From positions 4,448,001 through 4,512,000 of the forward strand of contig OZ253564.1 in the NCBI GenBank assembly GCA_965262915.1: a DNA stretch of 64,000 nucleotides, in the 5' to 3' direction. This document shows positions 6,988-21,102 of this stretch, one piece after another (position 1 is the first letter of the stretch; every line of letters starts with the position of its first letter). The notes under the pieces were generated by a model. It saw nothing but the letters and a program-made list of their open reading frames with translations, searched no databases and was not told the DNA's origin. Position numbers and translations under genes: made by a program. The stretch is from Candidatus Spongiisociaceae bacterium (GTDB lineage Bacteria > Actinomycetota > Acidimicrobiia > Spongiisociales > Spongiisociaceae).

Positions 6988-7509
6988 CGGTTTAGCATAG
7001 AGACGTGTGAAACACATGTCAATCGGCCACTACCCGGAGGGGCTACCAGGCCGTCGTTTGTGCAATCCGGCGGGTTCATGGCATTGGATACCGAAGCCCA
7101 TTTCGCTGGCCATTCTGGGCCAGCTCTTGTAATCCATGGTAGGGCGAATCGGGGCGACCACGGCTTAGAACGGAGAAGGAGCAGCCATAGCGGACAGCGG
7201 CGGCGACCGACGTAGCCAGCGCCACAGAGCCGAACACGATCGCCGTCGCCCACAACAGTTCGGCCTCCCGAAAATGGTCTCTCAGTTTCATCGCCGCCCC
7301 GGTGACGGCCGTTACGGACAGGAGATCTCGACTGTTACCCCCAGGGTCACACTGATCCCCACGACGGCGGCGGCTACGGCCTGAATCTGGCTCTTCGGAA
7401 ATGAGTGGGGAGTAGGGGATCTGCCAGGGGGAGTTGGAATCCACCAGAAGTGAGGAGGGGTCCTCCATAATCGGGTGTTGGTAATGACATCCGAGGCAGG
7501 AGGACCCCT

Positions 7510-8808
7510 GTGGAAGCTGATCCTACGCGCATGTGCGAGAAGTTGGTAGGCCTAGGTGAGGTTGATCTGGTAGGGATCAACGACCCGGGCGAGGAGGCAC
7601 CGTTGGAGGTGGTGATCCGGTCCCGCAAGCCCCGGCCGTTGTGTGAGTCCTGTGGCGGGTCGGTGTGGTCGAAGGGCTATCGGACGGTTGTGTTGGTGGA
7701 TTTACCGGCGTTCGGCCGGCCTGTGCGGCTGCGGTGGCGGAAACGGCGCTGGACATGTCCGAACCCCGACTGTGCGCTCAGATCGTTCATCGAACAAGAC
7801 CCCAAGATTGGTCCCCAACGGGCGTTGTTGACATCCCGAGCGGCCCGGTGGGTGACCATCCAGGTGGGTGGGCGGGGCCGTTCGGTCGACGAGGTCGCCG
7901 CAGAACTTGGTTGTGATTGGCATACGGTGAACAAAGAGGTTGGCCGCTGGGGCGAAGCGCTGCTGGAAGCAGACACCGATCGGGTCGGGACCGTCGAAGC
8001 TGTGGGAGTGGACGAGACGTTGTTCTGGCGTCGGGGCCGTTGGCGTACCAAAGTCTGGTGCACCTCTGTCGTCGACGTTGGCGGCCACCAGCTGATCGAC
8101 ATAGTCCCTGGTAGAACAGCAGAAAGCGCCGCAGCCTGGTTCCGGTCACAACCCACCGAATGGTGTGAGGCTATCCGCTGGGCGGTGTTGGACATGTCCG
8201 GTTCGTATCGGAAGGCGTATGACAGGGTGCTGCCGCACGCGCTGCAGGTAGCGGACCCGTTCCACGTCATCCGCCTCGCCAACCAGCGTCTCGACGAGGT
8301 ACGACGAAGAGTCCAAAACGAAACCCTCGGGCATCGAGGCCGCAAGGATGACCCGCTGTATCGGATACGGCGGCTCCTAACCGCTGCGCATGAGAGGATC
8401 AGCGACCGGGGTCAAATACGGCTGCGTGGTCTCCTCGATGCTGGTGACCCCTACGGGGAAGTGCGCACAGCCTGGCACGCGAAAGAGACGGTACGAGGCA
8501 TCTACGGGATCGAGAGTCCGGTCCTTGCTCTCCGATACACCCTCCAGCTCGCAGACGACCTCCAACACGAATCCTGCCCACCCGAGATCAACAAGCTGGG
8601 TCGTACCATCGCCCGCTGGACCCCCCAGATCACCAACTGGCACATCTCGAAGGTAACCAACGGACCCACCGAAGCCCTCAACAACCTCATCAAACGGATC
8701 AAACGAGCAGCGTTCGGGTTCCGCAACTTCGCGAACTACCGAATCCGCGCCCTTCTCTACGCGGGGAAACCCAACTGGGACCTACTCCCATCGGTCACTC
8801 CCCACTGA
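7510..8808 (+). CDS. ISL3-family transposase (intact ORF)
   Basis: Zn finger, GVDET, DMS, ADPFHVI, TNGPTEALNNLIKRIKRAAFGFRNF. Confidence 0.95.
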   Translation: MEADPTRMCEKLVGLGEVDLVGINDPGEEAPLEVVIRSRKPRPLCESCGGSVWSKGYRTVVLVDLPAFGRPVRLRWRKRRWTCPNPDCALRSFIEQDPKIGPQRALLTSRAARWVTIQVGGRGRSVDEVAAELGCDWHTVNKEVGRWGEALLEADTDRVGTVEAVGVDETLFWRRGRWRTKVWCTSVVDVGGHQLIDIVPGRTAESAAAWFRSQPTEWCEAIRWAVLDMSGSYRKAYDRVLPHALQVADPFHVIRLANQRLDEVRRRVQNETLGHRGRKDDPLYRIRRLLTAAHERISDRGQIRLRGLLDAGDPYGEVRTAWHAKETVRGIYGIESPVLALRYTLQLADDLQHESCPPEINKLGRTIARWTPQITNWHISKVTNGPTEALNNLIKRIKRAAFGFRNFANYRIRALLYAGKPNWDLLPSVTPH

Positions 8809-8824
8809 AATCCACTCATACTTA

Positions 8825-9005
8825 GAAGGTTCCTGGGCTAGGGCGGGTCTGACCCAACTGAAATCTGGCCTTGTGCCTTTTCATCGATCTGTCGGCCCGT
8901 TCCCGGCCTAGGGCGTAACCCCCTGACCCGGGGCGGATGTGACCTAATAGGAGCCTTCAACTTCTCCACCGTGAGTGGCCTGTCCAACCGCACACGGGTC
9001 CGGGA
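8825..9005 (+). ncRNA. Predicted bridge RNA of IS110-A (ends approximate)
   Basis: LTG ACTGAAATC 8857-65, RTG TCATCG 8881-86, LDG ATAGGAGC 8947-54, RDG TGAGTG 8972-77, within two stem-closed loops. Confidence 0.85.
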
Positions 9006-9042
9006 TCATAAGTGAGTCTATCCCCTAGAGGAGAAGAGCATC

Positions 9043-10272
9043 ATGGGAGAAGCAGACCAGATTATCTACGGTGGGGTTGACACCCATCGGGACGTCCACG
9101 TAGCAGCGGTGGTGGATGGCGTCGGGCGGGTACTGGGATCGGAGTCTTTCGCGGTGGAGGAATCCGGTTATCGGCGAATGGTCACCTGGTTCGAGTCGCG
9201 GGGACAGTTGGTTCGGGTTGGGGTGGAAGGAACGGGTAGTTACGGCGCCGGCCTGGCCCGTTACCTGACCGAGATGAACATCGAGGTGGTGGAGGTCAAC
9301 CGCCCCAACCGCCAACTACGCCGCCAGAAGGGCGGCAAGACCGACAGCGTCGACGCCGAGGCGGCAGCTCGGGCAGCTGCCTCGGGCGAAGCAACCGCGG
9401 TTCCCAAGTCCGGTGTGGGCCCGGTCGAGTGCATACGGATGCTGTGGGTGGTGCGCCGCTCCGCGGTCAAGGCCCGCACCCAGGCCGCTAACCAGATACA
9501 TGCGCTGGTCGTAACAGCTCCCGAGCCGCTAAAACACCAGCTAAAGGGCATGAATCTCAAAGCACGGGTCAAAACCTGTGCCCGGTTCCGACCCGGCACA
9601 GACCACACCACCACCGCGTATGCGAAGCGTGCCCTACAGCATTTGGCCCGCCGGTATCAGGCCCTCGACGTAGAGATCGCCCAACTCGAAGCCGAGATCC
9701 GGCGTCTCTGCGCCCAGGCCAACCCGGCCCTGCTGGCCACAGAAGGTGTCGGTCCTGACACAGCCGCCGCGTTGTTGGTCGCCGCCGGCGACAACCCCAA
9801 GCGAATGAAATCGGAACGGTCTTTCGCGGCGCTGTGCGGCGCCAGCCCCGTCCAGGCGTCATCAGGACGAACCCTTCGGCATCGTCTCAACCGGGGCGGC
9901 AACCGCCAAGCCAACAACGCGCTATGGCGGATCGCTACCACCCGGATGCGCACCGACGCCGCCACCAAAGCCTACGTGGCACGACGCAAGGCCGAGGGCA
10001 AGAAGAAAAAGGAGATCATCCGCTGCCTCAAGCGGCACATCGCCCGAGAAATCTACCGGCTCCTCACCAACCCGCACCCAACCCCGAACTGCGCCCGCCT
10101 ACGCACCCGACGCCAACAACGCGGCATCACCCTCACCCAGACCGCCCAAGCCGTCGGAACCCACCCCAATCGCATCTCAGCACTCGAACACGGCCGAGAC
10201 CACAACCACCACCTCGCCACCCGATACCAGAACTGGCTGCACACCCACCAAACCGCCCCATCATCGATTTGA
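9043..10272 (+). CDS. IS110 DEDD recombinase with C-terminal XRE-like HTH
   Basis: GGVDTH, VGVEGTG, GKTDSVDA, PVQASSG, HRLNRGGNRQAN; tail RLRTRRQQRGITLTQTAQAVGTHPNRISALEHG. Confidence 0.95.
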   Translation: MGEADQIIYGGVDTHRDVHVAAVVDGVGRVLGSESFAVEESGYRRMVTWFESRGQLVRVGVEGTGSYGAGLARYLTEMNIEVVEVNRPNRQLRRQKGGKTDSVDAEAAARAAASGEATAVPKSGVGPVECIRMLWVVRRSAVKARTQAANQIHALVVTAPEPLKHQLKGMNLKARVKTCARFRPGTDHTTTAYAKRALQHLARRYQALDVEIAQLEAEIRRLCAQANPALLATEGVGPDTAAALLVAAGDNPKRMKSERSFAALCGASPVQASSGRTLRHRLNRGGNRQANNALWRIATTRMRTDAATKAYVARRKAEGKKKKEIIRCLKRHIAREIYRLLTNPHPTPNCARLRTRRQQRGITLTQTAQAVGTHPNRISALEHGRDHNHHLATRYQNWLHTHQTAPSSI

Positions 10273-10739
10273 CAACCATAGGAGCATCGATGAGCCCTGA
10301 ATCTGCGTCCTCGTGGATCCCTCCGGGCGGTTCGCTGAGTAGGCCAACATACACAGCCCGCGCCAAGGCGCCACGCCACATGGGGAGACCTAGGCGAGGT
10401 GTTTTGGTACAGTGGGTGTCGTTGTGTTGTAGACAAGAAACTATGATACGGGATGGATACTCCGCTCGGGTCAGGGTTGCGAGCCTCTGCCTAAAGGACT
10501 ACTCTCCCGAAGATATAGGGCCACGGTGAGCCCGGCAGCCAGCCGAGGTACTCCCCCCAAACCCGGGTGTAGAAATCCGTCTGGCCCATCTGTCTTCTAA
10601 CCATCTTGGTTTCTATTTTTGGACCGGGAGACGTGGCCATGGCCGCCCTCCCGGTTTCTATTGTCCGGAGGGCGGTACCCCATCACGGACCGAGAGGGTG
10701 CCCGCGTGGTTGTTCGTGATCCCGGTAGGAGCCTCTCAG

Positions 10740-12523
10740 CCTGGATCCACCGATAGAGTATTTGGGGTTGGGGGTGGATAGACGCGGAAAGTGCCTCTGA
10801 TCTGGGACAATAGCCGTATCTGGAATGGTTATTGGCTCGGAGTCAGGAGGCACTTCCTGTGAGTGGAGTATTGCATAACATCAACCGTCTGGGGGTGGTT
10901 TTCGATGATGAGTCTTTGGTGGCCGACGCGGGGTTGTTAGCGGCCGGAACGTTGATGGACCGTCTCGGGTTGGAAGAGTTGGTGGACGGGACGGTGCGGT
11001 TGGGCGGCCGGGTGGGCGGCGCTCGGCCGGGTCGTAAGGTGTTGACGGTGGTGGCCGCAATGCTGGTGAGCGCTTCCCATATTGATCATGTGGATCGGCT
11101 ACGGGCGGGGTCAACGGGTCGGGTGTTGCCCCATGCGGTGATGGCTCCTTCCACGGTGGGGGTGTTTCTGCGTTCTTTCACCTGGGGTCACACACGCCAG
11201 TCGGGGGAAGGTGTTGACCTTGGCGCTGGGCCGGGCGTGGAGGACGGGTGCGGGTCCCGGGACCGGACCGGTGACGGTTGATCTGGACTCGACGATCTGT
11301 GCGGTGTCGGGCAAAGGGAAGCAGGGCGCCGCTTATGGTTATACCAAAGAGTTGGGTTATCACCCTCTTGTGGCGTTCCGGGCCAGCACGGGGGAGGTGG
11401 TCGGTGCCCGCCTGCGGGAAGGGTCGTCGCAGCGGGGTGTGGTCCATTTCGCGAAAGAAACTATTGGGCGGATAAGACGGGCCGGCGCTTCGGGCCGGGT
11501 GAGTGTGCGAGCCGATTCGGGGTTCTGGTCTTATGCCATGTTGGCTGCCCTAGACGATCTGGGGGTGGGCTGGTCGATCACCTCTCAGGCGAACAACAAG
11601 GTCAGGGCACTGATCGCCGACATCGGCGAAGACGCCTGGACCACTATCGGCTATCCCCCAGGGGGTGAAGCACAAGTGGGGGAAACGGTCATGGAGATGA
11701 CCAACCCCGGGAAGCGGTCGGAGCGACGCCAGGTTCGTTTGGTGATACGCCGCACCCGCCTGCTCGGTTCCCAAGCTCAGCTGTTCCCCGACTGGCGGTA
11801 CCACGCGTTCGTCACCAACCTCAACCTGCCGGCGGTCTCAGCCGACCGACACCACCAACCCCAGGTCGGGGAAGACACCGAACCGCCCAGGGTTGCCGAC
11901 ACCGGCCGCAACCCTGGGCGGGAACCTACCGAGGTATCGGCGGTCGAAGCCGACCGATACCACCGCCGCCACGCCACCTGCGAACTCGCCATCCGCGACC
12001 TGAAACACTCCGCAGGGCTCGCCCATCTCCCCTCCGCCAGCTTCGTCGCTAACGCCGCGTGGCTGATCTGCGCCGCCCTATCCCATAACCTCTACCGCCA
12101 GATCGCTCTCCTCGGACGAACCCAACCCAAGGGACGGCTCGTCTGTGGACGCACCATCCGCACCCGACTGTTCGGAATCCCCGGACGTGTGGTCAACCAC
12201 CGGGGCCGGCACATCCTGCGTCTACCCGCCCCATGGCCCTGGGAGCAGGTCTACCTAACCACCCTCGCTAACCTCCGCCGACTACCCCAGGTCTGCTGAC
12301 CGCACCCAACAGGCCCCCAACAACCAAAACCACCCAGCCAACCCCAGCCACACACGCCCCAATCCTCCGGAACCATCCCCCAAACACCACAAACGCATTC
12401 CACCATCCACCGACACACCCCTAACATCGCCCCAAACACCACACACCAAGCCCACCACCCCCAGCCACCGCCGCCAATCACCCACCGCCACGGTCAACCC
12501 CCCAATCCGTCGGTGGATTCAGG
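10740..12523 (+). mobile_element. IS1380-family element, transposase frameshifted near 11200
   Basis: IRs CCTGGATCCACCGA / TCGGTGGATTCAGG; TSD CTCAG 10735-39 and 12524-28; DLDST, GYHPL, RADSGF, ELAIRDLK. Confidence 0.92.
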
Positions 12524-13081
12524 CTCAGTTCGCAGAGGAACGGGTACCCCGAGTAGTCGGGTTCTACGGTGTCTGGTTTTGTTGCAGGTATGGGGGCATT
12601 ATCTGCCGTCGACCGACAGCCCGGCCGCTAAACAGCCTGCAAAACGTGGGTGCTCCCGACGGCTGGGAATGCACGAGGCGGGCGAACGCGGGGCCAGTCG
12701 TCCTCGTCCCGCATCCCGTGGACGCCGCCAACTGCAACAGCCCGGATGGTGCCCCAACCGACAGGGGTGCAGGGACCGTCCTACAATGCCCATTAGGGTC
12801 AGGCTGTGTCGGCGGGTTTCCGCCGGAAACCGGGTTAGCAACCTGGCGGTCTGAGTGGCCGAGGCTAGGGGGCGGGCGATTATCGAGGCGACCCGACGGG
12901 CGTCGTGACGGAGGAGTGCATCCATTAGGCAGCCACCGAGCGTTCAGTCGCCGCCACCGAGGAGCATGTAGAGGCTGTCTCGGAGGATCGGGACCACCAG
13001 CGGGAACAGCACCAGGGAGGCGCCGACCGTGGTGGCCGTGTCCCATCTAGGTCGTCGCCTGGGTGGGCGTGCGGGTAGGGC

Positions 13082-13316
13082 TGTTGACGTTTCGTTGCAA
13101 CTCACTCATAGTGGAGGGCGCCCCGTTTCTTAGGTGGCCCCTGTCACCGTGATGGCGTGGGGTGTGGTGCCTCCCGACATGGTTGGGTGCCTGCGACCTC
13201 TGGCAGGGACATGCACCGAAGTTCGGTGAACGCCCCGTTTTCCCCGGAGACTCTCCGGTAATCCCGGTGCGGTTCAGTCCACAAAAGTGGGGTAACTTCA
13301 CTCCCGTTCACTGACA
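13082..13316. mobile_element. Compound remnant: IS21-like end, IS110 left end (13104), 50-bp IS3 IR-IR unit (13227-13276), IS21-like end
   Basis: TGTTGACG...; C|ACTCATAGTGGA as in IS110-C; TGAACGCCCCG...CCGGTGCGGTTCA; ...GGGGTAACTTCACTCCCGTTCACTGACA. Confidence 0.7.
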
Positions 13317-13363
13317 CGGTGGGTGACTTGTGGCTACGGTTGGACCGATGCCGAGTTGGCACG

Positions 13364-13966
13364 CTATAGGTCGAGGTCATCCGCTGACGCAACACCGCAC
13401 CGGTCCAGCACGGCAACCAGAACGCTTCGGTCCGTACCCAGGTCGAACATCACACGATGGAAATAGACGGGCGGTGGATGCTCCCACTCGTCTTCCCCAA
13501 CCCAGCGCTCGCCTTTATTCGAGTACTCCCGCAAGGCACCCTCATACGGCGCCTTGTAGGCATCCATCTCGTACACCAGCAACTCAGAGCCGGCCAAGGC
13601 CTCATATACTTCAGTGGTCACAACCAGTGATCTGTCGCCGTACGGGCCTGCTTCGCCGTCCGTAAAGAACGCCCACCGCTGTGAATATGAGTATCCCAGG
13701 TTTTCGGACGGGAACGGGTCGTAGTGGACCTGGGCCTCAGTCGGGTAACGGCCATCGGTCTCACATCCGGCAGATAGCCCCGCGTTGCCTTCCGAAGAGA
13801 GAAGCCTTGCCTCCCACCGTTCGTCGTCTGAGTGATCCACCCAGCCCTGCGGTGGCTCTTCGACGACGACTGACGTGGCAACCGACGTTTCGACCGGGCC
13901 TGACACCACATCACACCCAGCCAGCAACAGCAGCGGAAGCGTTATCCGTACCGCAGCACTGCGCAT
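13364..13966 (-). CDS. Putative lipoprotein
   Basis: GGGAGA RBS; lipobox LLLAGC. Confidence 0.75.
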   Translation of the reverse strand: MRSAAVRITLPLLLLAGCDVVSGPVETSVATSVVVEEPPQGWVDHSDDERWEARLLSSEGNAGLSAGCETDGRYPTEAQVHYDPFPSENLGYSYSQRWAFFTDGEAGPYGDRSLVVTTEVYEALAGSELLVYEMDAYKAPYEGALREYSNKGERWVGEDEWEHPPPVYFHRVMFDLGTDRSVLVAVLDRCGVASADDLDL

Positions 13967-14003
13967 TTGGTCTCTCCCTTCGTGGTTCTCATAACGGTCG
14001 GGG

Positions 14004-14257
14004 TCACCCTTCGCAGTAGCCTCCCCGCCGGTCCGATGACTTCCTCCCAACGGAGAAGGTCCGTATCTGCCCGTCCTCCTGGCGGACCCGCACCTGCCCG
14101 CTCACTCTCGATTCCCACACCGAGTAGCCATCACTCGAACAGTACTCGTCCACAGGGGCGTAGACAGTCCGATAGCTGCTCCAGTCTTTTGCGTTCCTGT
14201 CCCACATTACCCAGAAGACGAGACCGTCACGTGCCCACAGTTGGCCTGGGCAACCTT
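14004..14257 (-). pseudogene. 3' remnant of a hypothetical gene cut by an IS3-type end
   Basis: Frame open to 14257, where the IS3 IR fragment TGAACCGTACCGGGTT (14258-73) begins. Confidence 0.45.
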
Positions 14258-14329
14258 TGAACCGTACCGGGTTTGTTGACGATCAGCGAAATTACCCAGT
14301 CTCGATCACCGAAAATCACTCATAGTGGA

Positions 14330-14560
14330 TGGTGCCCCGTTTCTTTGGGGGTCACTGCGATGATGCGGGTGGCCCCCCGGGACCGGGGGGCGGGTCTGAC
14401 CCAACTGAAATTTGGCGTGTGGATTGCCTTTGTGGGGATCTGTCGGCCTGTTCCCCCGGTCCCGGGGGCGGGGTTGTGGCTCGAAGCGGATGTGACCTTG
14501 TAGGAGCTTTAGCTTGCCAGCACCGTGAGTGTATTGTCCGCCGTTTTTGGCCGGAGCCCC
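14330..14560 (+). ncRNA. Predicted bridge RNA of IS110-C (ends approximate)
   Basis: LTG ACTGAAATT 14404-12, RTG GTGGGG 14432-37, LDG GTAGGAGC 14500-07, RDG TGAGTG 14526-31. Confidence 0.85.
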
Positions 14561-16064
14561 TTCTAGCAAGACGGTAGTCCACGGGGAGGTGGGTCGTGTC
14601 AGAGGATGGGGTTGGTGTTTTCGGGCTCTTCGGAAATGAGGGGGGAGTAGGGGGTCGGCTAGGTGGTGCCGTAATCCACCAGAAGTGATGGGGGGTCCTC
14701 CATAATCGGATGGTTGGTAACAGACATCCGAGGCAGGAGGACCCCTGTGGAAGCTGATCCTACGCGCATGTGCGAGAAGTTGGTAGGCCTGGGCGACGTT
14801 GATCTGGTAGGGATCAACGACTCGGGCGAGGGTGCACCGCTTGGGGTGGTGATCGGGTCCCGCAAGCCCCGCCCGTTGTGTGAGTCCTGTGGCGGCCCGG
14901 TGTGGTCCAAGGGTCACAGAACGGTTGTGTTGGTGGATTTACCGGCGTTCGGCCGTCCGGTTCGGCTGCGGTGGAGGAAACGCCGCTGGACGTGCCCGAA
15001 CCCCGACTGTGAGATCAGATCGTTCATCGAACAAGACCCCAAGATTGGTCCCCAACGGGCGTTGTTGACATCGAGAGCGGCTCGGTGGGTGACCGTCCAG
15101 GTGGGTGGGCGGGGCCGCCCGGTCGACGAGGTCGCCTCGGAGTTGGGTTGTGATTGGCATACGGTGAACAACGAGGTCGTCCGCTGGGGCGAAGCACTCC
15201 TGGGGGCCGACACCGATCGGATAGGCGAGGTCGGAGCTGTGGGCATCGACAAGAAGCGTTGTTCTGGCGGAAAGGCCGGTGGCGCACCAAGGTTTGGTGC
15301 ACTTCTGTCGTCGATGTGGGAGGCCGCCAGTTGATCGACATAGTCGGTGGTAGAACGGCAGAAAGCGCCGCAGCCTGGTTCCGATCCCAGCCCCCCGAGT
15401 GGCTCGACGGGATCCGCTGGGCGGTGCTGGACATGTCAGGGCCTTATCGGAAGGCGTACGACCGGGTGCTACCGCACGCGCTGCAGGTAGCGGACCCCTT
15501 CCACGTCATCCGCCTCGCCAACCAGCGACTCGACGAAGTACGACGAAGAGTCCAAAACGAAACCCTCGGGCATCGAGGACGCAAGGATGACCCGCTGTAT
15601 CGGATACGGCGGCTCCTCACCGCCGCCCATGAGAGGATCAGCGACCGCGGTCAAACACGGCTGCGTGGTCTCCTCGACGCTGGTGACCCCCATAGCGAAG
15701 TCCGCACCGCCTGGCACGCGAAAGAGACGGTCCGAGGCATCTACGGGGTCGACAGTCCCGCCCTCGCTCTCCGATACACCGTCGGGCTCGCGGACGACCT
15801 CCAGGACGAATCCTGCCCACCCGAGATCAACAAGTTGGGTCGCACCATCGCCCGCTGGACCCCCCAGATCACCAACTGGCACATCTCGAAGGTAACCAAC
15901 AGATGCCACCGAAGCCCTCAACAACCTCATCAAACGCATCAAACGAGCAGCGTTCGGGTTACCCAACTTCGCGAACTACCGAATCCGCGCCCTTCTCTAC
16001 GCGGGGAAACCCAACTGGGACCTACTCCCATCGGTCACTCCCCACTGAAATCCACTCATACTTA

Positions 16065-16245
16065 GAAGGTTCCTGGGCTGGGACGGGTCTGACCCAACTG
16101 AAATCTGGCTTTGTGCCTTTTCATCGATCTGTCGGCCTGTTCCCAGCTTGGGGGTGTAACCCCCTGACCCGGGGCGGATGTGACCTTATAGGAGCTTTGA
16201 TCTTCCACCACCGTGAGTGGTCTGTCCACCGCCTTCCGGGTCCGA
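16065..16245 (+). ncRNA. Predicted bridge RNA of IS110-B (ends approximate)
   Basis: LTG 16097-105, RTG TCATCG 16121-26, LDG ATAGGAGC 16188-95, RDG TGAGTG 16214-19. Confidence 0.85.
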
Positions 16246-16286
16246 GGATTAGGAAGTGATTCTATCCAGCAGAGGAGGAAGGTGTC

Positions 16287-17603
16287 ATGGGAGAAGATGG
16301 TCGGGTTGTGTTCGGTGGGGTTGATACCCATCGTGATACCCATGTGGCGGCGGTGGTTGATGGCGCCGGTCGGGTCCTGGGAACGGCACCGTTCGGAGCT
16401 GATCCGGTCGGCTATGAGCAACTGGAAGACTGGTTGCGGTTACAGGGTCGCGTTAGCCGGGTAGGAGTGGAGGGCACCGGCAGCTACGGCGCCGGCCTCG
16501 CCCGCTATCTGATGGCGGCGGGCATCGAGGTGGTAGAAGTGAACCGGCCGAACCGGCAGCTACGCCGCCAGCGGGGCGGCAAGACCGACAGTGTCGACGC
16601 CGAGGCGGCAGCTCGGGCAGCGGCCTCGGGGCAAGCTACCGCAGTTCCCAAATCTGGTGACGGACCGGTTGAGTGCATACGGATGCTGTTGGTGGCCCGC
16701 CGCTCGGCTACCAAGGCCCGCACCCAGGCCGCTAACCAGATACATTCTGTGACCGTTACTGCACCTGAGCCGCTAAAACGCCAGCTCAGAGGTCTCAAGC
16801 TCAAGGCTCGGGTTCGGGTCTGTGCCCGCTGGCGTCCCGGCCAAGCACAGACCACTGCGGCGTACGCGAAGATGGCTCTACGCTACCTGGCCCGCCGATA
16901 CCAATCCCTCGACGCAGAGATCCGCGAACTCGACGTCGAGATCCGTCGCCTCTGCGCCGAGGCTAACCCGGCTCCCTTAGCCGCCACCGGTGTGGGCCCT
17001 GACAGCGCTGCTGCGCTGCTAGTCGCTGCCGGCGACAACCCCGGACGGATGAAATCGGAACGGTCCTTCGCTGCGCTATGCGGCGCCAGCCCCGTCCAGG
17101 CATCATCGGGACAGACCATCCGGCATCGTCTCAACCGGGGCGGCAACCGCCAAGCCAACAACGCACTCTGGCGGATCGCTACCACCCGGATACGCCACGA
17201 CGCAGCCACCAACCAATACGTGGCACGGCGCCAGGGGGAAGGAAAGAACCGAAAAGAGATCATCCGCTGCCTCAAGCGGCACATCGCCCGAGAGGTCTAC
17301 CGACTGCTGACCAACCCGCCACCAACCCCGAACTGCGCCCGGCTCCGCCGCCGACGTCAACACGCCAACATCACCGTCACCCAGGCCGCCCAGCTGACCA
17401 ACCCGCCACCAACCCCGAACTGCGCCCGGCTCCGCCGCCGACGTCAACACGCCAACATCACCGTCACCCAGGCCGCCCAACAGCTCGGAACCCACCCCAG
17501 CCGCATCTCAGCACTCGAACACGGCCGAGACCACAACCACCAACTCGCCAGCCGATACCAGACCTGGCTCCTAACCCACCAACCGGCCCCATCACCGACT
17601 TGA
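16287..17603 (+). CDS. IS110 recombinase with XRE-like HTH and an internal 29-aa duplication
   Basis: DEDD and SSG motifs intact; 87-bp tandem repeat 17307-17480. Confidence 0.93.
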   Translation: MGEDGRVVFGGVDTHRDTHVAAVVDGAGRVLGTAPFGADPVGYEQLEDWLRLQGRVSRVGVEGTGSYGAGLARYLMAAGIEVVEVNRPNRQLRRQRGGKTDSVDAEAAARAAASGQATAVPKSGDGPVECIRMLLVARRSATKARTQAANQIHSVTVTAPEPLKRQLRGLKLKARVRVCARWRPGQAQTTAAYAKMALRYLARRYQSLDAEIRELDVEIRRLCAEANPAPLAATGVGPDSAAALLVAAGDNPGRMKSERSFAALCGASPVQASSGQTIRHRLNRGGNRQANNALWRIATTRIRHDAATNQYVARRQGEGKNRKEIIRCLKRHIAREVYRLLTNPPPTPNCARLRRRRQHANITVTQAAQLTNPPPTPNCARLRRRRQHANITVTQAAQQLGTHPSRISALEHGRDHNHQLASRYQTWLLTHQPAPSPT

Positions 17604-18949
17604 CAACCATAGGAGCATCGATGAGCCTGTTTTCGGTGGGGTTGATACCCATCGGGATGCCCATGTGGGGGCGGTGGTGGATAGCGCTGGTCGCCTGTTG
17701 GGTTCGGAGTCGTTCGCAGCGGAGAGAGCCGGGTATCGCCAGATGGTCGCCTGGTTCGGATCGCAGGGATGCCTGGTTCGGGTCGGGGTGGAAGGGACAG
17801 GCAGCTACGGCGCTGGGCTGGCTCGTTATCTGACCGCAGCCGACATCGATGTGGTGGAGGTGAACCGCCCCAACCGCCAACTACGCCGCCAAAAGGGCGG
17901 GAAGTCTGACAGCGTCGACGCCGAGGGAGCAGCTCGGGCGGCTGCTAGCGGGGAGGCGGCGGCGGTTCCTAAATCCGGTGATGGGCCGGTTGAGTGCCTC
18001 CGGATGCTGTTGGTGGCCCGCCGCTCCGCGACCAAGGCCCGCACCCAGGCCGCTAACCAGATCCATTCTGTGATCGTTGGTGCCCCAGAGCCGGTAAAAC
18101 ACCAGCTCAAGGGTATGAACCTCAGAGCACGGGTCCGGGTCTGTGCCCGCTGGCGTCCCGGTGAAGCACAGACCACAGCCGCGTACGCGAAGAAGGTTCT
18201 ACGCCACCTGGCCCGCCGATACCAAACCCTCGACGCAGAGATCACCGAACTTGAGGGAGACATCCGTCGTCTCTGCGCTAGGGCGAACCCGGCGTTGTTG
18301 GCCGCCAACGGTGTGGGCCCTGACACAGCCTCGGTGCTGCTGGTCGCAGCCGGCGACAACCCCGGGCGAATGAAATCGGAACGGTCCTTCGCGGCGCTGT
18401 GCGGCACCAGTCCTGTTCAGGCATCATCGGGACAGACCATACGGCATCGTCTCAACCGGGGCGGTAACCGCCAAGCCAACAGCGCGCTGTGGCGGATCGC
18501 TACCACCCGGATGCGCACCGACGCTGCCACCAAAGAATATGTGACCAGACGCCAGGGGGAAGGAAAGAACCGAAAAGAGATCATCCGCTGCCTCAAGCGG
18601 CACATCGCCCGAGAGATCTACCGACTACTCACCAACCCGCCCCCAACCCCGAACTGCGCCCGCCTACGCGACCAGCGTCAACATGCCGGTATCACCGTGA
18701 CCCAGGCCGCCCAAGCCCTCGGAACCCACACAGCCCGCATCTCAGAACTCGAACTCGGACGGAACCACAACCACCAGCTAGCGACCCGATACCAGAGGTG
18801 GCTCCGCACCCACGAGGCGGCCCCATCACCGATTTGACAACCGTAGGAGCATCCCCACCCTGTGACAGCAAATACCAGACGTTGAGTGGGGTCCTCTCCA
18901 AGCTGCTGACTGAGAGATCTGGCAGCGAGGAGAGGGAGCCCTGCCGCTG

Positions 18950-20254
18950 ATGTTGGCACAGGAGGAATCCGTGGAAGTACACGCGTTGAGGAAGCGAGGC
19001 TGGTCGATGTGGGCCATTGCCCGCCATGTGGGAAGAGACCGCAAAACAGTACGAGCTCACCTTTCTGGTGAGCGTATCCCCGGGCAGCGGAGGTCGGCGG
19101 AGCCGGATCCGTTCGATGTGGTCGAGGCTTATGTTGGGCAGCGGCTGGCCGAGGATCCCCATCTTTGGGCGACGGCACTGTTCGACGAAGCCAAGGGTCT
19201 GGGGTATGGGCAGAGCTATGTGACGTTTGCCCGTAAGATCCGAGTCCGGCGGCTGCGTCCGTCGTGTGCGGCGTGTGGGGGAACCCGAGGACAGCCGACC
19301 GTGGTGATCGATCATCCGGCGGGCGAAGAATGCCAGTGGGACTGGTTGGAGTTGCGGGACACCCCGTGGGGGTCGAAGGTTTTCGTGTTGGTGGGTGTGC
19401 TGTCACATTCGGGCAGGTTCCGGGCGTGGGTGAGCTCGAGCCAGGACCAGGCGCATCTGGTGGAGGGCATCGACGGGGTGCTGCGCCGCTTCGGGGGGAC
19501 TGCCCGGCGGTGGCGGGTGGATCGTATGGCGACGGTGGTGGTGCCGGGCACCGACCGGATACAGGCGTCGTTCGTGGGAGTGGCGAAGCATTACGGTGTC
19601 GGGGTTGATCCGTGTCCGCCGAGACGGCCGAACCGCAAAGGCGTGGTCGAGAAAGCGATCCATTACATAGCTCAGCGGTGGTGGCGCACCGCTGCGGTGG
19701 GAACACTGTCCGAGGCGCAGGACAGCCTCGACCACTTCTCCCAGACGGTTGGGGATGCCCGTCGGCGGGCTGGGGACACGGTTGGGGAACTCGCCGACGC
19801 AGAACCGTTACTTCCGCTTCCTGCGATGCCGTATCCCGCGGAGGGAGTCCTGGTCCGCAAAGTGGCTGCCAACGGGCTGGTGTCGGTGTGGGGCAACCAG
19901 TATTCGGTGCCACCAGGGGTTATAAGAACCGAAGTTAGCGTTCGTTGGCGGCTGGGTGACCCCAGCTTCGATGTAATCTCGGCTTCTGGGCGGCTGGTCG
20001 CCACCCACCGCAAGGTCCCCCGAGGCCAAGGCAGGGTGGTTCGCCTTCCCGAACATACCGCAGCCCTGGAGAAGGTCGTGCTCGGGGCGTTCACCACAGC
20101 CCGGCCCCCCAAACCCAAACCCAACCGGCCACCATCGGCAGCGGCTCGGGCGATCGCCGCCGACATTGGGGGCGGAGTGGAACACGACGAGCCGGTGATC
20201 GACCTCGCCGTCTACCAACGTCACATCGACCAACAGAACCGGGGCCGGCGATGA
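18950..20254 (+). CDS. istA: IS21 transposase IstA
   Basis: N-terminal HTH, PAGEECQWDW, DRM, KGVVEK, GNQYSVP. Confidence 0.93.
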   Translation: MLAQEESVEVHALRKRGWSMWAIARHVGRDRKTVRAHLSGERIPGQRRSAEPDPFDVVEAYVGQRLAEDPHLWATALFDEAKGLGYGQSYVTFARKIRVRRLRPSCAACGGTRGQPTVVIDHPAGEECQWDWLELRDTPWGSKVFVLVGVLSHSGRFRAWVSSSQDQAHLVEGIDGVLRRFGGTARRWRVDRMATVVVPGTDRIQASFVGVAKHYGVGVDPCPPRRPNRKGVVEKAIHYIAQRWWRTAAVGTLSEAQDSLDHFSQTVGDARRRAGDTVGELADAEPLLPLPAMPYPAEGVLVRKVAANGLVSVWGNQYSVPPGVIRTEVSVRWRLGDPSFDVISASGRLVATHRKVPRGQGRVVRLPEHTAALEKVVLGAFTTARPPKPKPNRPPSAAARAIAADIGGGVEHDEPVIDLAVYQRHIDQQNRGRR

Positions 20255-21034
20255 GCCGAGACACCATCTACCAACAGCTCCGTGGCCATCTCGCCTACCT
20301 CAAGCTGGCGGCAGCTGCCGAGGCGCTACCAGCCCACCTCGAAGCAGCCCGCCAGAGCCAGCTTGGCCACACCCAGTTCCTCGAGGAACTGCTTCGCGTC
20401 GAGGTCGAAGCCACCGAAACCCGCCGCTGGAACAGCCGGATGCGGTTCGCTAACTTCCCCACGGCCTGGCAACTCGACGACTTCGACTTCTCAGCCCAGC
20501 CCTCCATCGATGAGAAACTCGTGCGGGAACTCGCAGCAGGCGCCTACCTCGCCGACGCGACCAACGTGCTGTTCATCGGCCCGCCCGGAGTCGGCAAGAC
20601 CATGCTCGCGGTCATCTTGGGCCGCGCCGCGGTCGATGGTGGGCACAGGGTTTACTACACCACCGCCGCTGACCTAGCCGCCCGTTGCCCCAACAGCCGC
20701 CCTCGAAGGCCGCTGGGCCGCAACCATGCGGTTCTTCTCCGGCCCGGCAGTTCTCATAGTCGACGAACTGGGATATCTGCCCATGCCCGCCCAAGACGCC
20801 GCCTCCCTGTTCCAGGTCATCTCCCGCCGCTACCAGAAAGGATCGGTCATCCTGACCACCAACCGCAACGTCGCGTCGTGGGGAGACATCTTCTCCGACT
20901 CCACAATCGCTGCTGCCATGCTGGACCGGCTCCTGCACCGAAGTGTCGTGTTCACCATCTCAGGTGACAGCTACCGGCTACGCGCCTACCAAGCCCAAGC
21001 CCGCAAACACCGACCGAAAGGAGACAGAAACTAG
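20251..21034 (+). pseudogene. istB: IS21 helper ATPase IstB, frameshift near 20690
   Basis: Walker A GPPGVGKT; LIVDELGY, TTN and AMLDRLLH lie in another frame. Confidence 0.9.
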
Positions 21035-21102
21035 ACTCAGCAACACACCCAGGGTGGGGATTTTCACTGATCGACTCTGGGTAGTTTCAACGATCGCCAA
21101 CA

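Follow-up and report, generated by a model that had tools for sequence, protein, structure and literature searches.

How does an insertion sequence (IS) of the IS110 family come to lie at one fixed base in the end of another IS? The question is raised by a stretch of 64,000 nucleotides (the window) from a Candidatus Spongiisociaceae bacterium (contig OZ253564.1, positions 4,448,001 to 4,512,000, forward strand), in which three IS110 elements, IS110-A, IS110-B and IS110-C, are lodged in two ISL3 elements and one IS21 element. The genome holding the window consists of one contig of 5.06 Mb with 64% G+C. An earlier note on this DNA had proposed that the three elements are programmed by RNA against the terminal inverted repeats of other transposons. 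We conclude, with a probability of about 0.9, that they are IS110-group (IS621-like) IS and that a bridge RNA encoded in their left end picks the insertion site.

Guides and insertion sites of the three IS110 elements in the window

Junctions, guides and flanks were read directly off the window sequence, to which open reading frame (ORF), repeat and Pfam results were added. The window contains a four-level nest in which an IS21 element holds IS110-C, IS110-C holds ISL3-B and ISL3-B holds IS110-B. IS110-A lies in ISL3-A. The elements, with their left and right inverted repeats (IRL and IRR), their left and right target guides (LTG and RTG) and their left and right donor guides (LDG and RDG), are as follows.

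7389..10296, plus strand: ISL3-A, host IS; IRL GGCTCTTCGG from 7389, IRR tip GATGAGCC to 10296
7381-7388 and 10297-10304: 8-bp target duplication of ISL3-A, CTGAATCT
7510-8808: ISL3-A transposase (Pfam DDE_Tnp_ISL3, 1.1e-57); empty IRRs elsewhere in the genome
8813..10288, plus strand: IS110-A, within the IRR of ISL3-A, 9-10 bp from the tip; shared C at 8813 and 10288
8804-8813: left junction of IS110-A; flank ACTGAAATC (8804-8812), shared C (8813), then ACTCATAC
10276-10288: right junction of IS110-A; CCATAGGAGCAT (10276-10287), C (10288), then the ISL3 IRR tip GATGAGCC
8840..8999, plus strand: bridge-RNA-like non-coding region of IS110-A (from alignment, consensus fold, pair counts and guide/flank table)
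8857-8865 and 8881-8886: target loop of IS110-A; LTG ACTGAAATC and RTG TCATCG
8947-8954 and 8972-8977: donor loop of IS110-A; LDG ATAGGAGC and RDG TGAGTG
9043..10272, plus strand: recombinase A, 409 aa; DEDD_Tnp_IS110, Transposase_20 and C-terminal XRE-type helix-turn-helix (HTH)
14274..21102 (tips approximate), plus strand: IS21-family host element; IRL TGTTGACGATCAGCGAAATTACCCAGTCTCGATCACCGAAAAT-CCCCACCC, mirrored by the IRR
14317..18853, plus strand: IS110-C, in the inner of two direct repeats of the IS21 left end
14308-14317: left junction of IS110-C; flank ACCGAAAAT (14308-14316), C (14317)
18853: right junction of IS110-C; right end CCGTAGGAGCAT, C (18853), then CCCAC
14404-14412 and 14432-14437: target guides of IS110-C; LTG ACTGAAATT and RTG GTGGGG
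14500-14507 and 14526-14531: donor guides of IS110-C; LDG GTAGGAGC and RDG TGAGTG
14624..17627, plus strand: ISL3-B, inside IS110-C; 8-bp duplication TGTTTTCG at 14616-14623 and 17628-17635
16053..17619, plus strand: IS110-B, inserted in the ISL3-B IRR at the base also used by IS110-A
16044-16053 and 17610-17627: junctions of IS110-B, same as those of IS110-A
16097-16105, 16121-16126, 16188-16195 and 16214-16219: LTG, RTG, LDG and RDG of IS110-B, strings as in IS110-A

IS110-A and IS110-B had been placed at the same base of two ISL3 IRRs and IS110-C in an IS21 IRL. The first placement was confirmed in the sequence, positions and strings included, and the second likewise, IS110-C lying in the inner repeat of the left end with CCCAC after the shared C. 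All guide strings quoted earlier are present, and the left guide matches its flank at 9/9 positions in IS110-A and IS110-B and at 7/9 in IS110-C, as had been stated. The left end measures 230 nt in IS110-A and about 310 nt in IS110-C; the right end is only 16 nt long (15 nt past the stop codon plus the shared C).

Seven guide pairs track seven sets of flanks

The common scaffold that the earlier note saw in the three 5' non-coding regions is conserved in 30 elements: thirty left ends in the genome carry it, with guides in fixed slots in 30/30. Seven guide pairs (left/right) occur among them.

Type A/B: ACTGAAATC/TCATCG, 17 copies
Type C: ACTGAAATT/GTGGGG, 2 copies
Type N: AAAGAACAC/GCGTTG, 3 copies
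Type P: CGCGAAAAC/CCCACG, 4 copies
Type Q: CCGGGAAAC/CCCCGG, 1 copy
Type R: GGTGAAATC/CCAAGG, 2 copies
Type S: CCTCGTAAC/GTCATG, 1 copy

The left guide agrees with the left flank at 9/9 positions in 24 elements, at 8/9 in three, at 7/9 in two and at 5/9 in one, and the reverse complement of the right guide agrees with the right flank at 6/6 in 22, at 5/6 in seven and at 2/6 in one (n = 30 in both cases; the right-flank score of IS110-C in the window was set by hand from its true right end). Each of the seven guide pairs goes with its own flanks. The types other than A and C have changed both guides. Relatives in other genomes have further guide pairs that track their flanks, for example CCTTGTAAC/GGTTAG in genome G021, and the relatives in G001, G002, G007, G021, G025 and G026 share the scaffold and have guides matching their own flanks. 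In distant homologues (49-54% identity, loci L011-L016) the scaffold was not matched with the patterns used here.

Covariation of guides and flanks in homologues, a check that had been set beforehand, was assessed on 21 non-redundant guide/flank combinations (12 guide pairs from this genome and its relatives) and 231 non-cognate pairings. Cognate guides matched 8.0/9 positions on the left, 5.5/6 on the right and 13.5/15 in total, compared to 5.1/9, 2.7/6 and 7.9/15 for non-cognate guides. The own guide type was the unique best at 15/21 sites, and five of the six exceptions were found among closely related IS21-targeting variants. The claimed covariation of the donor guide with the element end also holds, across all seven types: the donor left guide reads GTAGGAGC exactly where the right end reads GTAGGAGC (types C and R) and ATAGGAGC in all others, its variable base (G in types C and R, A in the other types) tracking the right end. 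TGAGTG of the RDG and CACTCA of the left end are invariant.

These data bear on whether the site could instead be chosen by the protein, for example by a C-terminal HTH that reads IS ends, the RNA-like matches being by-products such as captured target sequence. The recombinase does have an XRE-type HTH tail that is absent from IS621, and an A-rich run common to all left half-sites, 3-4 bases from the crossover, could be a protein preference. However, recombinases of one type share 100% identity or close to it, those of different types 70-80%, and quite different targets follow the guide slots. Moreover, a right guide in reverse complement combined with a left guide in sense is the known bridge-RNA pattern and not that of a copied target, and the slots lie in loops of a conserved fold. 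We consider choice by the protein very improbable and retain guidance by RNA as our reading.

The earlier note had further suggested that one scaffold was retargeted between two IS families mainly by swapping a 6-nt guide. The guides themselves speak for this, as IS110-A and IS110-C differ at 5/6 bases of the right guide and at only 1/9 of the left; the elements as a whole show further differences, being lineages of about 80% identity, with a left end about 70 nt longer in IS110-C. The motif said to be common to both inverted repeat (IR) targets is in keeping with the second C-type copy (genome position 642018), where the IS21 end reads ACTGAAATT, a 9/9 match that fits a common left half-site. 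The 7/9 match of IS110-C in the window is therefore a tolerated mismatch and not design.

Crossover at a single shared C

The 3' ends of ISL3 elements were located with the final 100 bases of the ISL3 gene as anchor (n = 48). Sixteen are occupied by IS110 at the same base. Twelve empty ends (IRRs) read ACTGAAATCCGATGAGCC / CCCCACTGAAATCCGATGAGCC, four read ACTGAAATCCGAAGAGC and eight read ACT(G/A)AAACGCGATGAGCC, while the further eight are other variants or degenerate. Since the 12 empty IRRs read CCCCACTGAAATCCGATGAGCC, the target ACTGAAATC-C-GATGA with a single shared C, as proposed earlier, is right. A multi-base core, ATC or TC, was ruled out: with ...AAATCCGATG... in the empty ISL3 sites, the two junctions can have no more than one C in common, and the donor junction is therefore ...GGAGCAT-C-ACTCATA.... 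Empty IS21 ends (AATGAAATT-CCCCAC and ACTGAAAAT-CCCCAC) give the same one-C crossover for type C. Comparison of occupied with empty sites indicated that the element is added and nothing else, with no target duplication beyond one C and with terminal inverted repeats (TIRs) absent from these IS110 elements. The empty ISL3 IRR at genome position 306087 reads ACTGAAATCGATGAGCC, with one C and not two; this is the sequence that both A-type guides would cover, overlapping at the C.

Occupancy differs between variants of the site. Among ISL3 IRRs reading ACTGAAATC-C (one being ACTGAGATC), 16/32 are occupied, compared to 0/8 among those reading ACT(G/A)AAACG-C, in which two bases beside the crossover are altered. 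This contrast is suggestive of natural target specificity, in a sample of kin copies that are not independent, and the occupancy data predict that the variant site ACTGAAACG is a poor target.

Predicted fold and possible expression of the left-end RNA

A scaffold alignment of 13 sequences from seven genomes gave a consensus fold, and a curated 26-pair structure was counted on it. In the fold, a basal stem leads to an internal loop with the left guide on the 5' side and the right guide on the 3' side; this target loop encloses a small invariant hairpin, and a second stem-loop holds the donor guides likewise. In the 26-pair structure 93.8% of cells pair, compared to 42-57% when the partners are slid by 1-3 columns. 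Eight of the 26 pairs have changed on both sides, and 0/500 shuffles reach the observed covariation score. These statistics overstate independence because the aligned sequences are related. The IS621-type bridge RNA layout assigned by the earlier note is supported by this two-loop fold, by compensatory changes in the stems and by a recombinase that aligns to the catalytic residues of IS621. Judged by sequence, the left end has the build of a bridge RNA, with two loops that would carry guides to target and donor.

The non-coding region of IS110-A may be expressed, as hinted at by contigs from RNA libraries that match it with at least 90% identity (X2, 8853-8995; X5, 8755-8957; X7, 8692-8954; X1, 8815-8976). 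The contig cover comes from all three true metatranscriptome runs and one probable RNA run, and the X5 contig bridges the ISL3-IS110 junction. Stretches of the recombinase gene lack contigs in these runs, which carries no weight either way. Because the left end of IS110-A starts 5 bases past the stop codon of the ISL3-A transposase gene, in the same orientation, read-through from the ISL3 gene could supply the RNA when the element is integrated. The element ends would also be compatible with a promoter at the circle junction: a TTGACA box is placed 13 nt from the right end (types P and Q have TTGCAA there) and a second box, CATACT, CATAAT or CATAGT, is found 4 nt into the left end, which would leave 17 nt between the two.

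The recombinase

All three recombinases contain DEDD_Tnp_IS110, Transposase_20 and a C-terminal XRE-type HTH according to Pfam. The N-terminal DEDD RuvC-like domain (PF01548) was detected with E values of 1.2e-23 (A), 1.3e-24 (B) and 4.7e-20 (C) and the C-terminal Tnp domain (PF02371) with an E value of 1.7e-19. Recombinase A matched the IS621 structure 8wt6 in phmmer (E 9.5e-12). In the alignment the residues D, E, D and D coincide with their IS621 counterparts, in GvDTh, vEgTGsY and KTDsvDA, and GASPVQASSG aligns with GLTPRRYESG of IS621, corresponding to the G--P----SG serine motif given for the Tnp domain in passages of PMC11187229. The HTH tail comprises the last ~70 residues (~340-409; Pfam HTH_31/HTH_3); IS621 is without an HTH, and in related genomes the alignment of remoter homologues mostly reaches no further than residue ~345. 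The stop codon of recombinase A falls within the right-end TTGACA. Small Actinomycetota clusters that combine Transposase_20 with HTH_3 are present in the ESM Atlas, a lead only. The gene of IS110-B differs as follows.

16287-17603: recombinase B, 438 aa; in-frame perfect 87-bp tandem duplication at 17306-17479

The duplication accounts for 29 extra residues directly before the C-terminal HTH (438 vs 409 aa).

Proposed mechanism and comparison with known systems

In the mechanism we propose, the target loop acts through a 9-nt left guide, which by sequence is in the sense of the left half-site, and a 6-nt right guide, which is the reverse complement of the right half-site. In the donor loop, (A/G)TAGGAGC agrees with the right end of the element, and TGAGTG is the left end CACTCA in reverse complement. 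By analogy with IS621, the DEDD/Ser recombinase would join the excised circle (...GGAGCAT-C-ACTCATA...) to the target at the single shared C, and the circle junction would assemble the promoter of the RNA from the right-end TTGACA, a 17-nt spacing and the left-end CATACT, CATAAT or CATAGT.

IS621 of E. coli is an IS110-group bridge recombinase (Durrant et al., 2024, PMC11208160; Hiraizumi et al., 2024, PMC11208158). Passages of the former paper (PMC11208160) place IS110-group bridge RNAs in the left end with the order LTG, RTG, LDG, RDG, report predicted left-end bridge RNAs for 85.7% of the ISfinder IS110-group elements, include the IS621 core CT in all four guide pairings, and assign to the IS1111 group a guide RNA in a long right end and subterminal inverted repeats of 7-17 bp. 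The elements studied here, with their right end of 16 nt and their scaffold in the left end, do not fall into the IS1111 group. They resemble IS621 in the DEDD RuvC-like domain and the Tnp domain with catalytic Ser, in the left-end non-coding RNA upstream of the gene, in the two internal loops with LTG, RTG, LDG and RDG (left guides in sense, right guides as reverse complements), in the absence of TIRs and target duplication, and in a right-end -35-like box that would meet a left-end -10-like box after circularisation. They differ from IS621 in their low protein identity, their length (409 aa with a C-terminal HTH compared to 326-328 aa), their one-C core in place of CT and their two left-guide registers. 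They also differ in their targets, which are other IS, whereas IS621 targets repetitive extragenic palindromic (REP) sequences.

Two further systems are comparable in their targets. IS4321 and IS5075 (IS1111 group) reportedly target the inverted repeats at the termini of Tn21-family transposons. Like the elements of the window, they are IS110-family elements found in one orientation at a fixed position within a terminal inverted repeat of another transposon. Their guide RNA is in the right end and they have subterminal inverted repeats of 11-13 bp, whereas the elements here have a long left end and a 16-nt right end; their hosts are Tn3-family transposons of Proteobacteria, compared to ISL3 and IS21 elements of Acidimicrobiia in the present case. 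IS1383 is said to target the inverted repeats of IS1384 in Pseudomonas putida and is thus likewise an IS110-family element aimed specifically at the inverted repeats of another IS. The host IS family and phylum are different, and IS1383 represents a single pairing, in contrast to a series re-aimed within one genome. We know of no guide analysis of IS1383.

The novelty claimed in the earlier note is accordingly partial. RNA guidance and the targeting of transposon inverted repeats have already been published; ISL3 or IS21 targets were not found described. In full-text literature including a 2026 preprint on IS110 loci, with supplementary target tables outside this scope, we found no IS110 element aimed at ISL3 or IS21 ends and no description of the Acidimicrobiia IS110 clade of this window. 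Mechanism and transposon-end targeting are known, and the features added here are the HTH tail, the one-base core and the seven-fold guide series.

Several observations weigh against guidance by a bridge RNA of the IS621 kind. Donor and target have just one base (C) in common, where IS621 has a dinucleotide. Two registers are seen for the left guide: types A, C and Q pair at -9..-1 and types N, P, R and S at -8..0, and the Q guide is in one register here and in the other in G002. Between the donor left guide and the right end 8 bases agree, with a mismatch two bases before the crossover. Both C-type copies in the genome have disrupted recombinase genes: the other copy is frameshifted, and the window copy, whose own DNA comprises 14317-14623 and 17628-18853, is cut near the start of the gene by ISL3-B. 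The element at genome position 3665110 (3663632-3665110, L044) has ISL3-type guides and sits in a site that matches them at only 5/9 and 2/6, within an IS1182-like element and about 100 bp from its end. The single-sequence fold of IS110-A was not better than that of shuffles (z 0.44); because the RNA is GC-rich, this fold is uninformative. An Rfam scan of 8000-20000 at E values up to 1 gave no bridge-RNA match, and the library may hold no such family. Finally, the cover of 8853-8954 in 3/3 metatranscriptome runs is compatible with carry-over of DNA, and the contigs show no ends.

As to the geometry, the right guides always start at the shared C, in all types, and the left guide covers the C only in types N, P, R and S. 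This suggests that the right guides set the crossover and that pairing of the left guide may tolerate a slip of one base. The one-base core is a variant geometry and not a failure of the mechanism. As to element 3665110, conversion of an N-type element was considered; given its 97-100% identity to a B-type copy along the whole length, an apparent natural off-target insertion is the simpler reading.

Targets of the guides and probable effect on the host elements

Targets were identified via Pfam on flanking ORFs and BLAST of the flanks. Six of the seven guide types aim at other IS: four at ISL3-family elements, one at IS21 repeats and one at an IS110-family transposase gene. Types A/B are directed to the IRR of an ISL3 clade with a 432-aa transposase, and type C to the terminal repeats of IS21. 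A second ISL3-family element, whose transposase has 398 aa, is hit by three types: type P is found in both of its inverted repeats (GGCCCTGCGCGAAAA-CGTGGGTT), type R in its left end, about 21 bp further in than P (GGGGTGAAAT-CCTTGG), and type S in the stop-codon region of its gene (CCTCGTAA-CATGAC), a site of which eight empty copies exist. Type N lies just past the Transposase_20 domain of a different IS110-family gene, in the coding region and not in an inverted repeat. Type Q has a single copy in this genome; the same guide pair occurs three times in G002, in repeated sequence. IS21 ends are also among the targets of relatives, IstB adjoining the elements of loci L006 and L031. In view of types S and N, the earlier description of the targets as terminal inverted repeats is somewhat too narrow. 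One copy of the 398-aa ISL3-family element (genome 541942-546194, L036) has a P-type IS110 in both inverted repeats, with the right ends pointing inward.

In our reading, the guides of the clade have diversified onto conserved sequences of other IS, which offer multi-copy, mobile and harmless landing places: the ISL3 IRR, three sites in the second ISL3-family element, the IS21 terminal repeats and another IS110-family transposase gene. The ISL3 hosts of IS110 copies with 99.5-100% identity are themselves only 82-96% identical to each other; a copy 100% identical to IS110-A, for example, lies at genome position 3995416 in an ISL3 host 93.7% identical to ISL3-A. No pair in this comparison has both host and guest near-identical. 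The IS110 elements thus moved recently and independently. A metagenome-assembled genome of Acidimicrobiia (L001) has a recombinase 100% identical to A, likewise at this ISL3 site, and 27/61 related genomes, a tally that includes the unpublished genome G032, on which none of the present conclusions depends, have a match at an E value of 1e-40 or better.

As a by-product, each insertion parts the tip of the host from the remaining host element and probably disables that copy. Immobilisation of the host IS, as the earlier note held, is plausible: no copied ISL3::IS110 composite was found among the ISL3 and IS110 copies of the genome, which fits disabling. From here the clade could be seen as kept for host benefit: guided by RNA, it would serve as a defence against transposons by knocking out active copies of ISL3, IS21 and IS110. 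Six of the seven guide types aim at other IS, the insertions lie in functionally critical ends with one ISL3-family copy hit in both inverted repeats, copied composites were not found, and among 11 ISL3 copies 100% identical to ISL3-A only one is occupied. Selfish targeting of safe sites explains these points equally well, however, and is the accepted view for IS4321/IS5075 and REP-targeting relatives. In addition, half of the perfect ISL3 targets are still empty, ISL3 has itself inserted into IS110-C, and the elements have kept what they need to move by themselves and have reached about 30 copies. Retention for the benefit of the host is accordingly quite unlikely. Slightly less so, and in our view still unlikely, is that the clade is a hyperparasite of transposons whose spread profits from the loss of an active IS copy at each insertion. 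This would amount to an RNA-guided, self-propagating control of transposons in IS-laden symbiont genomes, with a guide repertoire evolving against the resident mobilome as spacers track phages. We prefer selfish IS110 elements whose left-end RNA directs them to other IS.

One genome thus provides a natural reprogramming series for a bridge recombinase, with seven guide pairs on one scaffold and with targets both occupied and empty. The sites altered beside the crossover that remain empty constitute natural data on mismatch tolerance, and the one-base core and the flexible register of the left guide set the series apart from IS621. The range of usable bridge recombinases could be widened by an orthologue such as this one, whose target loop has 9+6 nt and which carries an added HTH domain. 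For genome evolution, the four-level nest and the reciprocal hits between ISL3 and IS110 document repeated IS-on-IS insertion in sponge-associated Acidimicrobiia.

Other features of the window

Besides the elements described above, the following features were recorded.

14714-15334 and 15154-16065: two ORFs of the ISL3-B transposase, the frame being broken
18950-20254 and 20251-20967: IS21 IstA and IstB (Pfam rve/Mu-transpos_C_2 and IstB_IS21)
21054..21068, minus strand: unoccupied C-type target in the IS21 IRR, AGTGAAAAT-CCCCAC; left half 7/9, right half 6/6
13104..13148, plus strand: orphan C-like left-end fragment (CACTCATAGTGGAGGGCGCCCCGTTTCTT...); guide scaffold absent downstream

Orphan left ends that begin with CACTCATA and are without the guide scaffold were found in the window (13104-13148) and at genome positions 161508, 3355588, 3624725 and 3765783. 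Four orphan left-end fragments are preceded by the same flank, CTAGCCCTGATT, which a relative in G001 (L007) pairs with the right guide ATGAAG, and CTTCAT comes after the remnant of a right end at genome position 1369614. Together, the orphan left ends and the CTTCAT remnant suggest an eighth guide type that has decayed. CACTCAT, with which the IS110 left end starts (CACTCATA, 8813-8820), also occurs in the reverse complement of the ISL3 IRL (window 7389-7410), perhaps by coincidence.

Rfam Ms_IGR-7, a small RNA of Actinobacteria, was matched at 10741-10902 on both strands with 44.9 bits (gathering score 45). As the matches on both strands overlap, this segment is palindromic. The segment, which may represent the end of an IS, is situated directly upstream of a truncated ORF (11211-12299) for a DDE_Tnp_1_4 transposase.

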